Source: Candidatus Micrarchaeota archaeon (GTDB lineage Archaea > Micrarchaeota > Micrarchaeia > Norongarragalinales > SBBD01). From it: a stretch of DNA of 39,023 nt. Positions within the stretch are counted from its first letter, which is position 1, and every line of letters begins with the position of its first letter. Below are positions 1,685 through 25,602 of the stretch, in pieces. The stretch is from contig JBDRLB010000062.1 of the NCBI GenBank assembly GCA_043813365.1, positions 1 through 39,023 of the forward strand. The letters run 5' to 3'. The notes under the pieces were generated by a model that saw only the letters and a list, made by a program, of their open reading frames with translations, had not been told where the DNA came from and did no database searches. A program made the translations under genes and the position numbers.

Positions 1685-2230
1685 TCAGCCCATTTCGAGC
1701 AGCTTTTCTTGAGGCATGTTTTTCAGCCACCGCACCTGCTTCATTTTCCGGGTTTTTTTGAACCTTTTTATTTCCCAAAGCGCCGTTTTTGCGGCACACT
1801 TCCTTGTTGCTACTATCTGCAGCACCTTCCCCATTCCGAAATTATGGATCGCATTGATGAGGCAGTAATCCAGCGCTTCGGACATCACATTATCATTGAC
1901 TTTCCAAACCGGGTATCCCCTTTTCCGCAGCCGCTTCGCCAGCTCATCCGGTTCGCACCTCATCACGATTACAAGGTCGCATGGAAGCTTCAAATCAGAG
2001 AGGAGATGGCTTTCGAGGATGATGCTTTTTTCCTTCCGGAGCATTTTCCGTAGCAATTTTCCCAATTTCCCGAAATCCGCTACATGTTCCCCATTCTCAA
2101 TATGCGAATACAGTTTCCTCTCACGGATCAGCCTGTTTACCTCAACCGCTTCGCATCCCAGCTCCTTTGCGAGCCCTTTGGAAATGCTGGTTTTGCCAGT
2201 GCCCGGCGTGCCGGTTATTATAAGCCTCAT
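1685..2230 (-). CDS. Adenylate kinase, AK6/Fap7-like atypical family
   Basis: Walker A GTPGTGKT, ILESH motif and LAKRLRKRGY...KVNDNV..E segment. Confidence 0.85.
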   Translation of the reverse strand: MRLIITGTPGTGKTSISKGLAKELGCEAVEVNRLIRERKLYSHIENGEHVADFGKLGKLLRKMLRKEKSIILESHLLSDLKLPCDLVIVMRCEPDELAKRLRKRGYPVWKVNDNVMSEALDYCLINAIHNFGMGKVLQIVATRKCAAKTALWEIKRFKKTRKMKQVRWLKNMPQEKLLEMG

Positions 2231-5252: not shown

Positions 5253-5790
5253 CAATTTTGTTTATTTCGCTCTCTGAAATAGGATTCCAGTAGAACTCGT
5301 AAATAAAAAATGTTTTCAAGAACTCAACCATTGGGATGCTTAATATACTGCACGTGCTTTCCCCATAGGAAACCGCTTTTAGTTTAAACAATTTTTCGAC
5401 TTTTTTCGCATCACCGTGCACAAGCAAAACTCCTTTTCCGCTCTCAAGGAATTTTTCTATTTACGGCTTCACTTTATTTCCAGCTACAACTTGGAATGGT
5501 ATGCCGGCTTTCTGCAAATTAGCCTTTGAAAGCTCAAGCATTTGAGGGGAAATTTCAAGTGCTACTACTTTACTTCCTTTTCTTGCTAACGGAATTAGAT
5601 GTTGGCTTGTTCCGGCTCCTATATAGAGGACATTGCCATTCATCGCATCGAGCTTCTCCTGCTCCCTTGTCCTGAAATTTGTAAGCTTCGGAACTCCGGT
5701 TTTCCCTTCATCAATTGCCCGCTCGAACTCATTGTAGCGGCCGGCATTGGAATTGTAGAACTCTCTTGAGCCTTTGAATAAAGGAGCCAT
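5233..5790 (-). pseudogene. Disrupted class I SAM-dependent methyltransferase
   Basis: Motif I VLYIGAGTS and VVALEISPQML. An in-frame TAA at 5461-5463 is followed by an open continuation in the same frame (IEKFLESGKGVLLVHGDAKK...) to 5233. Confidence 0.65.
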
Positions 5791-19363: not shown

Positions 19364-20533
19364 ATGCTAATTGCGATAATAGGTTTGCCGAACAAGGGGA
19401 AGAGCACGCTTTTCAACGCGCTTACTTTGGGGAATGCGGCAGTTGCGAATTACCCCTTCACGACCATTGATCCTAACAAGGGAGTTGCTTTTGCATCCTC
19501 CGAGTGCCCCCATGTAAAAATAGGGAAGGAATGCAACCCCAACAACAGCCGATGCGAGAACGGCATTCGGAAGATACCGATCAATGTTATTGATGTCGCG
19601 GGTTTGGTGGAAGGCGCCCACGAAGGAAAAGGCATGGGCAATCAGTTCCTTGCGGATGTTGCTGCTTCCGACTGCGCAATTCTGGTTGCGGACGCTTCCG
19701 GCGGCTCGGATGGCAGCGGCAATATAGTTGCTCCCGGAACCCACGATCCTATTGAAGATGTGAAAGTAATCGAATCTGAACTTGATTTCTGGTATGCGGA
19801 TGTTCTGAAAAGGAACGGCCAGAAAGCGAAAATGAAGAAACTTGTTGATCTCGCGGATCTCCTTTCAGGTTTGAAAATCACCTACGATGACCTGAACCAT
19901 GCGGTAATGGAGCTCGAGTTCGATGAGATTTTCTGGGAATGGAACAAGGAGCAGCTTCTGGAAGTTGCGAAAATCATCCGCCAGCGAACCAAGCCCATTG
20001 TGATTGCAGCAAACAAAATCGATTCCGAGCATGCGGATCCCAACCTCGAAAATTTGAAGGAGGAATTCCCGGATTACAAAATTTTCCCCATTTCAGCTGA
20101 CACCGAGCTCGCCCTGAGGAAGGCGCAGGAGAAGAGCCTGATCAAATATGATGGTAAGGATTTCCAGATCGCAGCGGATAACCTTCCCGATCCCATCAAA
20201 AATGCGCTCTCCAAATTCCAGAACAGCGTGATAAGCAAATACGGCTCAACCGGAGTGAACGATTTGATCAACTACTGCGCTTTCGACCTCTTGCACCAGA
20301 TCGTCGTGTATCCGGTGGAGGACGAGATGCACTTCTCAAACCATTTCGGGAAGGTGCTTCCGGATGCCATATTGCTGAAGAAGGGCGCGAAAGCAGTTGA
20401 TCTTGCGGGAAAAATCCATTCCGATCTCGCACAGCGCATCCTCTATGCGCTTGATGCGGAAAAGAAGATGCGGATCGCTAAGGATTCCGAATTGCACAAC
20501 AACCAGATTGTGAAGATCGTTTCTGCGAAGTGA
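19364..20533 (+). CDS. ychF: YchF/Obg-family ATPase/GTPase with TGS domain
   Basis: GLPNKGKST, NYPFTTIDPN, DVAGLVEGAHEGKGMGNQFL, NKID and IHSD. Confidence 0.93.
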   Translation: MLIAIIGLPNKGKSTLFNALTLGNAAVANYPFTTIDPNKGVAFASSECPHVKIGKECNPNNSRCENGIRKIPINVIDVAGLVEGAHEGKGMGNQFLADVAASDCAILVADASGGSDGSGNIVAPGTHDPIEDVKVIESELDFWYADVLKRNGQKAKMKKLVDLADLLSGLKITYDDLNHAVMELEFDEIFWEWNKEQLLEVAKIIRQRTKPIVIAANKIDSEHADPNLENLKEEFPDYKIFPISADTELALRKAQEKSLIKYDGKDFQIAADNLPDPIKNALSKFQNSVISKYGSTGVNDLINYCAFDLLHQIVVYPVEDEMHFSNHFGKVLPDAILLKKGAKAVDLAGKIHSDLAQRILYALDAEKKMRIAKDSELHNNQIVKIVSAK

Positions 20534-21156
20534 ACACCATGACGCATACCCCGATGCATAAGATCAACTGGCATTCCCTCTATATGAAAAAAACCAGGAA
20601 AAAAATGCTTTTTGGGGCTTCCCAATTCAGCAAATACCGGATGCAGGAGAAACCCTTCGTTGATTTTGTGAAAAAATTCGCCAAAAAAAGGGGTCGAATC
20701 CTTGATTGCGGAACCGGACTTGGCAGGGCTGCGCTATTCCTTTCACTTGAAGGCTTTCGGGTGACTGCTATTGACAGCAACCCAAAAATGCTTTCCATTG
20801 CAAGGAAAAATATCCGGAACTTTGGCGGAAAGGCGGAATTGGTCCTTGCAAATCTCAAACATTTGCCTTTCAAAGCCGGGAAATTCGACGCGATTGTGCA
20901 TCAGGGCATTCTTGAGCATTTCACGGAAAAAGGGGCAATTGCAATAATCCGGCACCACCTATCCCTTGCGCCCCTCGTAATTTTTTCCGTGCCGGTCCGT
21001 TCGCCTTACACGGAGGATTATTTTTCTTCAGATTCGGTTGGGAGAAACCTGCATCCCCGTGAAAAATGGGGAAAAATGCTTGGTTCATTTAATGTGAAGG
21101 AAATGAAAGTGGCAAAACAGCGGACTACAAACCTTCTAGTGGTGATCTCAAGATGA
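20530..21156 (+). CDS. Class I SAM-dependent methyltransferase
   Basis: ILDCGTGLG, LPFKAGKFD and GILEHF. Start uncertain. Confidence 0.85.
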   Translation: MNTMTHTPMHKINWHSLYMKKTRKKMLFGASQFSKYRMQEKPFVDFVKKFAKKRGRILDCGTGLGRAALFLSLEGFRVTAIDSNPKMLSIARKNIRNFGGKAELVLANLKHLPFKAGKFDAIVHQGILEHFTEKGAIAIIRHHLSLAPLVIFSVPVRSPYTEDYFSSDSVGRNLHPREKWGKMLGSFNVKEMKVAKQRTTNLLVVISR

Positions 21157-21770
21157 CTCGTCTGCTCCTGATAAGGCACGGCCTCACGCCGATGAACATC
21201 GACAACCGGATTCAGGGGAGCATTGAAACTACCCTTACAAAGCACGGCCTGAAGCAGGCGAGGGATTTGGCGCGGAGGCTCAAGGATGAGAAAATTGACG
21301 CGATCTACAGCAGCACCATGCAGAGGGCCATAATGACCGCAAATGAGGTGCTGAAATATCATCCGCGCCTGAAGCTGAAAACCTTTGAAGGCCTGATGGA
21401 GCGCGATTTCGGCGAATTCGAAGGCCTGCACTACGGGCATGCGAAGAAAAGGGAGCCACGGCTGCTTGCAAATGTGAATTTCACGGATTTCGATTATGTT
21501 CCCAAGGATGGCGAGAGCTGGGAGCATGTGAGGAAGCGGTCAATGACTGTAATCAACCACTTGCTCCGGATACATAAGGATGACACGATTGCAGTAATAG
21601 CCCATGGGGGTACCAACCGCGTGATTATTGCCACCCTGATCGGCCTGCCATTGAACTCCATCCCAGTTTTCAAGCAGCACAATGCGTGCGTGAACGTGAT
21701 AGACATCAATGGAAAGAAGGTGCGGCTCGTCCTCCTTAATGATACGGACCATACGATTTCTAACTACTGA
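21153..21770 (+). CDS. Histidine phosphatase family protein (PGM/CobC-like)
   Basis: RHG, QG, ERDFGEFEG, GES and AHGG motifs. Confidence 0.92.
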   Translation: MTRLLLIRHGLTPMNIDNRIQGSIETTLTKHGLKQARDLARRLKDEKIDAIYSSTMQRAIMTANEVLKYHPRLKLKTFEGLMERDFGEFEGLHYGHAKKREPRLLANVNFTDFDYVPKDGESWEHVRKRSMTVINHLLRIHKDDTIAVIAHGGTNRVIIATLIGLPLNSIPVFKQHNACVNVIDINGKKVRLVLLNDTDHTISNY

Positions 21771-22915: not shown

Positions 22916-23087
22916 GGGCCCGTAGCTCAGCCTGGATAGAGCGACAGCCTTCTAAGCTGTAGGTCGTGGGTCCGAATCGCCTGCCTTGCCTTTCTTTTCA
23001 GAAAAGAAAGGCGTAAGGCGCCGCCAAAGAAAACAATTTGCGGCTCCGCCAATTAGTCGGCAAGGCATGGATATCCCACCGGGCCCG
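22916..23087 (+). tRNA. tRNA-Arg(TCT) with a 97-nt non-canonical intron (22977-23073) in the T-loop at position 59/60
   Basis: Acceptor GGGCCCG/CGGGCCC, D-arm GCTC/GAGC, anticodon arm ACAGC-CTTCTAA-GCTGT and T-stem GTGGG/CCCAC, split by an insert with a bulge-helix-loop junction. No encoded CCA. T-rich tract downstream. Confidence 0.92.
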
Positions 23088-24577: not shown

Positions 24578-24934
24578 TTACCACTCCAGTCTCTCGCCGA
24601 TCCTTATCCCCAGCCGTCTAGCCTCCCCGGCCTTGCACTCAATGAAATATTTCGCCGGCTTCCTTGGCGCTATGTATATTTTCCATGCGGGGATATTCTC
24701 AATGATGTCCACGACAACCTTGTTGCCATTCAGGAACACCGCATCAAACCTGATGAGGCAGAAAAAAGAGTGGATTGCCGCCCTTACCCGGTCCTCGTAA
24801 TCCAAAATGAATAAGACCGGCTTCTCCAATTTCTTCCTAAGCATTATCCCCTTCGTTTTCTTCCAAGGAGTGTCCGCAAGCTCGTAGTTGTGGAACAGCA
24901 CCTTCTTCCTTGGAACGCTCCGAATGGCAGGCAT
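24578..24934 (-). CDS. DUF192 family protein
   Basis: ADTPWKKTKGIM, IHSFFC...DAVFL and AKYFIECKAG...IGERL. The start could also be 24979. Confidence 0.85.
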   Translation of the reverse strand: MPAIRSVPRKKVLFHNYELADTPWKKTKGIMLRKKLEKPVLFILDYEDRVRAAIHSFFCLIRFDAVFLNGNKVVVDIIENIPAWKIYIAPRKPAKYFIECKAGEARRLGIRIGERLEW

Positions 24935-24996
24935 GATTTGATATAATCCGAACTGCTTTTTATCCTGTCGCCTACCCATAGTATCTGTTGTTATTC

Positions 24997-25602
24997 ATGG
25001 GCTGGAAAGTAAAAAGGGAAAGGCCGGAGGAGAAATTTTCGGGGAAGGCGGAGGAGTTCTACTCGCAGGAAGGAAGGAATTACGAGAAGAACGCGATAAG
25101 GAACATACAGGAAAAAATACTCCTAAGGGGGCTCCAATTGGTGCAATTCCCCCCCAGCTCAAAATTATTGGATGTCGGATGCGGAACCGGGCTCGGCATG
25201 GAACTATTGAGAGAGCTGGAATTTGAGGTTATAGGAATTGACGTATCGGAAGAGCTGCTTGCTATTGCGAAAAAGAAAAAGCTGCGCGTGCAATTTGGGG
25301 ACATGAGGAAAGTCCCTTTCACTGCTGCCACGTTTGACGGGATCGTCTCCATTTCCGCTTTGCAATGGGTCAGCTCCAGAACCGATTATTCCGCAAAATC
25401 CGATTTGAAAAAAACCGCAAATGAATTTTACAGGGTGCTTAGGAAAAACGGCCGCGCATTGGTTCAGTTTTACCCCAAATCGGAGGAGGAAATGCTTGCG
25501 GCTGCAAAGGAATTCAAATCCGCAGGGTTCACCGGCTCCATCCAAATAGATAATGAGAACAATGCGAGGAAAAGGAGGATTTACCTGATGCTCAATAAAT
25601 AG
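24997..25602 (+). CDS. SAM-dependent methyltransferase resembling the Bud23/WBSCR22 rRNA guanine-N7 methyltransferase
   Basis: RPEE...EFY...IQ...R.L.L, LDVGCGTGL, FDGIVSISALQW, QFYPKS, AGFTG.I.ID and K.+.YL.L, all collinear with Bud23 as recalled. Confidence 0.8.
   Translation: MGWKVKRERPEEKFSGKAEEFYSQEGRNYEKNAIRNIQEKILLRGLQLVQFPPSSKLLDVGCGTGLGMELLRELEFEVIGIDVSEELLAIAKKKKLRVQFGDMRKVPFTAATFDGIVSISALQWVSSRTDYSAKSDLKKTANEFYRVLRKNGRALVQFYPKSEEEMLAAAKEFKSAGFTGSIQIDNENNARKRRIYLMLNK

Follow-up and report, generated by a model that had tools for sequence, protein, structure and literature searches.

A tail-less Bud23-like methyltransferase gene in a Micrarchaeota genome: family membership, distribution and predicted function

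The locus and its neighbourhood

The window analysed here is a stretch of 39,023 nucleotides, contig JBDRLB010000062.1, from a Candidatus Micrarchaeota archaeon of the DPANN group whose genome assembly comprises 1.34 Mb in 78 contigs and is 88.6% complete. Its gene content is archaeal, including a class I CCA enzyme, RFC, HerA, DUF2070, DUF359 and a cupin-type GPI, together with a HMG-CoA synthase/thiolase/DUF35 trio and a DnaK-GrpE pair. On the forward strand, positions 24997..25602 (stop included) hold the gene of a class I SAM-dependent methyltransferase of the Bud23 family (P0001), which the list of open reading frames translates into 201 amino acids between an ATG at 24997 and a TAG at 25600-25602. 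An in-frame TTG at 24988, three codons upstream, is a second possible start, and the ATG is the likelier one because homologues begin with M-x-W-x-V-K. The closest homologues carry the NCBI names Micrarchaeota or Norongarragalinales.

Both hallmarks of the class I SAM-dependent domain are present in the translation. The glycine loop of motif I that binds SAM, L58-D-V-G-C-G-T-G65 (25168..25191, +), is equally found in generic methyltransferases (8/8 outgroup rows), and its G61 and G65 do not vary among 46 archaeal homologues. Likewise invariant in those 46 homologues, as well as in 16/16 eukaryotic and 27/27 DPANN rows, is D82 (25240..25242, +), an acidic residue closing strand beta2; we take a residue of this type to be the ligand of the SAM ribose in class I methyltransferases. 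As far as the sequence can tell, the SAM site is intact. The family motifs lying outside that site (RPE...FY, the IQ helix, SxSxxQW and QFYP) are all kept too. They include the N-terminal signature R9-P10-E11 (25021..25029, +), which aligns with the RPEE of yeast, S118-I-S-A-L-Q-W124 (25348..25368, +; SISAIQW in yeast) and Q157-F-Y-P160 (25465..25476, +; QFYP in yeast), the last two being specific to Bud23 by their counts in family and outgroup. An earlier note on this DNA had read from the letters alone a series comprising RPEE...EFY...Y...IQEKILLRGLQL, SISALQW, QFYPKSEEE, AGFTGSIQID and RKRRIYLML, all of which occur in the translation. The yeast Bud23 series that the same note set beside it (RPEEL..PEIFY, IQAKMTLRALELL, SISAIQW, QFYPKN, AGFSGGLVVD and KKYYLVL) matches the HMMER alignment to 4qtt_B.

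The closest neighbour is a DUF192 gene on the reverse strand (24578-24979), which diverges from the Bud23-like gene with its annotated start only 17 bp from position 24997. Such spacing leaves two arrangements: either both genes are leaderless, with promoters in each other's coding region, or the DUF192 gene starts later, at M16. This divergent neighbour recurs in 6/7 loci of the window's own family, and the cupin GPI lies near the gene in 7/7. Other families of the order show M24 and PmbA/TldD peptidases as neighbours, and a second phylum carrying the gene shows a Cdc48-like ATPase with an M50 peptidase, MetRS with aIF5A, or a SpoU methylase with a diphthamide-synthase-like gene. Across the 20 open reading frames scanned, no consistent ribosomal link appeared in these neighbourhoods, which are not conserved beyond the family; they vary and elsewhere hold mostly peptidases, and the genomic context supports no functional inference. 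In this regard, the earlier note had drawn attention to a Fap7-like kinase in the window as another factor of small-subunit maturation. The gene is real: a Fap7/adenylate-kinase-6-type NTPase is encoded at 1685-2230 (-), with AAA_18 at 4.7e-21 and 4cvn_A as its best solved match at 1.5e-20, a chain deposited as 'putative adenylate kinase' behind which the CINAP/adenylate kinase 6 chains rank. A kinase of this type is, however, ordinary for archaea. Table S10 of Birikmen et al. 2021 (PMC8481954) has Fap7 in each of the four archaeal groups, and with the two genes 23 kb apart their co-occurrence therefore carries no weight for a role at the small subunit.

Other features of the window deserve mention in their own right. 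A second methyltransferase, a generic one, is encoded at 20530-21156 (+; Methyltransf_25, best PDB match 2avn_A at 1e-10), with start/stop overlaps with a YchF/YGR210-like GTPase gene (19364-20533) on one side and a histidine phosphatase gene (21153-21770) on the other; in the relatives L019, L020 and L022, all three of those in which both flanks were seen, GTPase and histidine phosphatase are adjacent without the methyltransferase. A short methyltransferase-like tblastn match (E 0.13) lies at 5491-5637 (-), in the gap before the CCA-enzyme gene. Finally, a candidate tRNA at 22916-22974 (+) scores 36.5 bits with Rfam and packs model positions 1-71 into 59 bases; ARAGORN reports no tRNA anywhere in the window, and the candidate may be a tRNA gene that is truncated, split or unusual in some other way.

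Assignment to the Bud23 family

Domain databases return generic assignments for the protein. Pfam gives generic families only, with Methyltransf_11 at 2.6e-19. All NCBIfam models stay below their cut-offs, the best being DVU_1556 with 69 bits (cut-off 155) and BioC with 58.6 (cut-off 184.95). These results, together with the UbiE label attached to some of the JGI homologues, speak for a generic Methyltransf_11 enzyme or an ordinary one for small molecules, of the UbiE or BioC kind, whose resemblance to Bud23 would be superficial. We consider such an identity very improbable in view of how the protein compares with enzymes of solved structure. A phmmer search of the PDB found yeast Bud23 as the closest of them (E 5.1e-31, residues 9-200 against 3-200), human BUD23 being matched at 1.8e-26. 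The five best distinct PDB sequences comprise two constructs of yeast Bud23, two of human BUD23 and 9xab_1 ('Methyltransferase-like protein'), all spanning residues 9-200 with E-values from 5.1e-31 to 1.8e-22. The best chain outside Bud23, PH0226, is found at 1.4e-9, which leaves a gap of 21 orders of magnitude between Bud23 and any other solved methyltransferase. The alignment with the methyltransferase domain of Bud23/BUD23 runs from end to end at 34% identity.

The same gap recurs in fold space. The AlphaFold model, built with 46 homologues as input (pLDDT 94.2, pTM 0.90), shows the alternating strands and helices of a Rossmann-like fold, and Bud23/BUD23 chains fill the first eight Foldseek ranks obtained with it, with E-values from 1.6e-19 to 3.7e-18, query TM-scores of 0.77-0.87 and an rmsd of 1.6-2.3 A. 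From rank 9 on, the matches are generic methyltransferases, starting at an E-value of 1.2e-11 and an rmsd of 4.9 A. Moreover, the relationship is reciprocal: for all five tail-bearing eukaryotic Bud23 proteins used as queries, the top match anywhere in the genome is C62:25021-25626 (E 4e-27 to 3e-32), and the runner-up lies between 4e-4 and 6e-9. No paralogue of the protein was found in its own genome, where the next tblastn matches stand at 3e-6.

A detailed view of the signature residues was obtained from an alignment of 65 family rows, among them 16 eukaryotic, 27 DPANN and 14 named Asgard ones, with 8 outgroup rows. Q38, S118 and S120 are present in 65/65 family rows, as against 1/8, 2/8 and 1/8 of the outgroup, respectively, and Y159 in 62/65 as against 0/8. 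Other positions separate groups within the family. The P10-E11 of RPE is kept in 15/16 eukaryotic and 21/27 DPANN rows and in none of the 14 named Asgard ones; R44 in 16/16, 26/27 and 4/14. The pair Q123-W124 is universal in eukaryotes (16/16) and DPANN (27/27), as is Q157 (16/16 and 27/27), whereas the named Asgard rows have N-F and E at these places, in 14/14 cases each. To judge from this alignment, the micrarchaeal protein keeps the pocket residues specific to Bud23. Its isoelectric point of 9.56 was also considered as a discriminating feature and was dropped, the generic outgroup being basic as well (median 8.9).

Scores, fold, reciprocity, the absence of family-specific residues from the outgroup and the trees described below, which split the family from 25 generic outgroup rows, largely refute the identity as a generic methyltransferase. 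The proposal of the earlier note that the protein is a relative of Bud23 rather than a generic Methyltransf_11 enzyme is borne out by sequence, predicted fold, reciprocal best hit, trees and signature residues alike; neither the best hits nor the tree placement, which that note had named as its decisive observations, fell with generic Methyltransf_11 enzymes. Homology to the Bud23 family is thus practically certain.

Distribution and phylogeny

A survey of the phylum (201 sampled genomes, P0001 as query, E <= 1e-15) recovered the gene in 16/201, all of them in the order of the window. Within this order an intact gene without internal stops occurs in 15/25 sampled genomes besides the window's own, and in the rest of the phylum it was found in 0/175. 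This pattern is one of purifying conservation of the gene across an archaeal order, as far as intact reading frames reveal it. A second phylum of small genomes was reached through locus L004, the one true locus that a search with P0047 returned along with two bacterial chance matches. There, 17/31 genomes carry the gene with profile E-values <= 1e-54, a generic methyltransferase of the same genome scoring 5e-7 with that profile. By source name, further homologues belong to Diapherotrites and Aenigmatarchaeota, and Asgard ones to Loki-, Thor-, Odin-, Hod- and Promethearchaeota, the Asgard names accounting for 14 rows among the 120 matches listed. The Asgard Bud23-like proteins (Loki-, Thor-, Odin- and Hodarchaeota, by automatic names only), retrieved with one profile, are members of this family too and likewise tail-less, with about 210-220 amino acids.

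HMMER, run exhaustively against 1.84 billion representatives, yielded 361 proteins at E <= 1e-10, 27 of them at <= 1e-30. A FastTree phylogeny was computed from 215 rows, including 25 generic outgroup rows; fragments shorter than 175 amino acids were omitted and two fused proteins were cut into their domains. In it the family stands apart from the outgroup and falls into two clades. The first clade (71 rows, support 98) contains all 51 tail-bearing eukaryotic rows, and the second gathers the short forms (119 rows, support 88), with the micrarchaeal protein among the archaeal ones. In a second tree, obtained with IQ-TREE from 73 rows under LG+C20 with a quick search, three groups are each monophyletic, namely the 16 eukaryotic rows (support 100), the 14 named Asgard rows (99) and the 8 rows of an archaeal clade 'A' (100), and the backbone gives no resolution between eukaryotes, Asgard and the other archaeal groups. 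A constraint joining eukaryotes and Asgard was not rejected in the AU test (p-AU 0.79), its tree scoring 20.5 log-likelihood units above the quick free one. With such a backbone, and with the constrained tree scoring higher, neither DPANN nor Asgard is established as the sister of the eukaryotes; in these trees it is clear that the micrarchaeal protein is not nested within the latter.

That last point bears on whether the gene could stem from a recent transfer from a eukaryote, or from eukaryotic contamination of the assembly. The sampled DPANN proteins are on average closer to eukaryotic Bud23 than the sampled Asgard ones (mean identity 31.6% over 432 pairs vs 27.3% over 224), a comparison in which the Asgard rows were collected with a profile built on divergent members and may miss Asgard copies of the Q-W type. 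RPE, Q-W and Q157 are also common to DPANN and eukaryotes. Against such an origin, the whole contig has archaeal gene content (class I CCA enzyme, RFC, HerA, DUF2070, cupin GPI and mevalonate genes), the synteny with DUF192 is kept in 6/7 family loci, the eukaryotic sequences are monophyletic with all archaeal ones outside them (support 100), and the archaeal clade is deep and diverse (119/215 rows). Altogether, contig, synteny, eukaryotic monophyly and the depth of the archaeal clade refute a recent eukaryotic transfer, which we hold to be extremely improbable. With 197 alignment columns, an ancient exchange of the gene between DPANN and stem eukaryotes may still have taken place.

Fused forms of the family exist as well. 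P0118 (412 amino acids), from a small archaeal genome, is a tandem of two Bud23-like domains, the first falling in a divergent short-form clade and the second among DPANN sequences. In P0126 and in an open reading frame of L013 (1336-2622, +), from other small archaeal genomes, a very divergent methyltransferase-like domain follows the Bud23-like one; the genome of the window holds no convincing homologue of this second domain, the best tblastn match being found at 4.7e-4.

Tail, partner and predicted target

The reference enzymes of the family are Bud23 of S. cerevisiae and BUD23/WBSCR22 of human (PDB 4QTT/4QTU, 6G4W and 7WTS-7WTW), which depend on Trm112/TRMT112 and form m7G1575 and m7G1639 of 18S rRNA, respectively. 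The micrarchaeal protein shares with them motif I, D82, RPE, Q38, SISAxQW, QFYP and GF(S/T)G. Unlike them, it has no WBS_methylT tail, a free-standing Trm112 was not found in its genome, and its activity and target are predictions; the nucleolar and processome context of eukaryotic Bud23 does not exist in an archaeon either. That the eukaryotic C-terminal extension is missing, as the earlier note had observed, is confirmed: the protein stops with its catalytic domain at residue 201, and Pfam gives no hit in it for the basic extension PF12589, which the eukaryotic homologues P0054 and P0056 carry. According to excerpts of Bourgeois et al. 2017 (PMC5372719), the crystallised yeast construct likewise lacks the C-terminal tail, so the tail does not define the Bud23 fold.

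The search of the genome for Trm112, which the earlier note had proposed, came out otherwise than in eukaryotes, the domain being present only as a fusion to another methyltransferase, with no convincing free-standing partner. The sole match to PF03966 over the cut-off is the N-terminal zinc ribbon of a 361-aa class I methyltransferase (contig C4, locus L001 559-1644, -), and a second PF03966 match is the zinc ribbon of a TFB-like protein of 299 aa, judged by eye. No free-standing Trm112 passed the Pfam cut-off in 31 genomes of the order or in 31 of the second phylum. In the former, the matches covering the whole model all lie in frames of 361-402 aa, similar fusions found in 5 genomes, and the remaining ones are partial and lie in frames of 299-336 aa, save one of 121 aa; in the latter, a single match over the cut-off sits within a 540-aa frame. 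In M. jannaschii, H. volcanii, S. acidocaldarius and M. acetivorans, the four archaeal controls, this search did give matches over the cut-off. Thus no convincing free-standing Trm112 was seen in the window's own genome (88.6% complete) or in 61 other small archaeal genomes, in a search with a 40-position Pfam model over incomplete genomes that a divergent partner may escape, and we infer that the DPANN Bud23-like genes are probably not accompanied by one. A complex prediction between the protein and the Trm112-like domain of the C4 fusion (residues 1-58) scored 0.00, run without controls, and speaks neither for nor against binding. Portions of Bourgeois et al. 2017 (PMC5372719) describe Trm112 as required for the stability and SAM binding of eukaryotic Bud23, for which reason a partner-less enzyme may behave differently.

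Other archaeal methyltransferases do work with Trm112. Hvo_0019, Trm9 and Mtq2 of Haloferax and the Trm11-Trm112 pair of Archaeoglobus are class I enzymes of the translation apparatus, as is proposed for the micrarchaeal protein. Unlike it, they are without the Bud23 signature motifs and pair with a free-standing Trm112, not found here. Hvo_0019 (6f5z_A) and Trm11 (6zxw_G) are weak Foldseek matches to its model, with E-values of about 1e-10, at least 8 orders below Bud23.

As for the target, we take the guanine gating the P site in 16S rRNA to correspond to G1575 in yeast, G1639 in human and G1338 in E. coli, and place it in the 16S rRNA of the relatives at the second G of GGAAU; in the carriers, the m7G site would presumably be the second G of CUGGAAUCCC. 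A search of the assembly found no 16S gene. Of five relatives searched, four have one, and all four, carriers themselves, keep CUGGAAUCCCUAGUAAUCG around the presumed target. Such a guanine is universal, so its presence in the relatives is necessary but not discriminating.

The protein may best be pictured as a minimal, catalytic-domain-only member of the Bud23 family. Most likely it would dock on the small subunit's head, in nascent or mature ribosomes, and use SAM to methylate, at N7, the gate guanine of the P site, which is universally conserved in 16S rRNA; for this it would need no basic C-terminal extension and probably no free-standing Trm112 to activate it. Substrate, position, N7 chemistry and Trm112 independence are wholly inferred, and we consider a tail-less, probably Trm112-independent enzyme making m7G at this guanine, in line with the eukaryote-like methylation suggested by the earlier note, a fairly probable reading. 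On the other hand, the fold and pocket of the family might have been kept by an enzyme acting on another RNA (tRNA, 23S rRNA or a different 16S site) or by a factor whose role in small-subunit assembly is mainly non-catalytic, as that of the eukaryotic protein is in part, which we regard as rather unlikely. The missing tail and Trm112, both parts of the eukaryotic working unit, would suit such a protein, as would gene neighbourhoods without a ribosomal link. So would the statement, in portions of Bourgeois et al. 2017 (PMC5372719), that ribosome biogenesis needs the presence of Bud23 and not its catalysis, and the archaeal surveys covered in excerpts of the same paper and of van Tran et al. 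2018 (PMC6144793), which mention no m7G at the G1575-equivalent 16S position in the archaea analysed. In Thermococcus kodakarensis, excerpts of Tsai et al. 2025 (PMC12124282) place m7G mainly in 23S rRNA, made by the unrelated enzyme TK0008. Opposed to all this are pocket-lining signature residues identical to those of eukaryotic Bud23, intact SAM motifs and a universally conserved rRNA target region. TK0008, acting on the 23S P-loop, and bacterial RsmG (16S m7G527) are the prokaryotic analogues of rRNA guanine-N7 methylation named in excerpts of the two sources (PMC5372719, PMC12124282), but they belong to unrelated families, modify other rRNA positions and do not appear among the PDB sequence matches of the micrarchaeal protein.

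In the specialist literature Bud23 is treated as a eukaryotic invention of small-subunit maturation, and excerpts of Bourgeois et al. 2017 (PMC5372719), like those of van Tran et al. 2018 (PMC6144793), say that archaeal genomes are without a significant homologue. The novelty is nevertheless lower than the earlier note had assumed. Several homologues are already called '18S rRNA (guanine1575-N7)-methyltransferase' by automatic JGI annotation. In Table S10 of Birikmen et al. 2021 (PMC8481954), BUD23 figures under 'ALL' for Asgard, Euryarchaeota and TACK, under 'Abund' for Asgard, and in no DPANN column, so that labels and table anticipate such homologues in part; the main text of that paper does not mention Bud23 at all. 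A portion of Ebersberger et al. 2014 (PMC3919561) assigns BUD23 'orthologs', minus one Pfam domain, to all taxa including bacteria, a call too broad to be specific. Our literature search found no paper whose main text names Bud23 together with Asgard or with DPANN. The gene in the window adds to the Bud23 family a member from a lineage for which specialist reviews say there is none, a finding partly anticipated.

Clear and conserved homologues in DPANN and Asgard, catalytically intact by their sequences, correct the statement that archaea have no Bud23, and the predicted consequence is specific: an rRNA mark that can be mapped at a functionally central nucleotide. We advance only tentatively the wider scenario in which some DPANN archaea would mark the P-site gate guanine with eukaryote-type m7G by means of a minimal Bud23 needing neither Trm112 nor tail. 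Bud23 would in that case have existed before the eukaryotes as an enzyme working on its own, to which Trm112 dependence, the tail and the role in processome disassembly would have been added later, and the active site of DPANN would be nearer to the ancestral one than that of the sampled Asgard. A natural minimal form of this kind, tail-less and apparently Trm112-less, could separate the role of the catalytic core from the eukaryotic additions.
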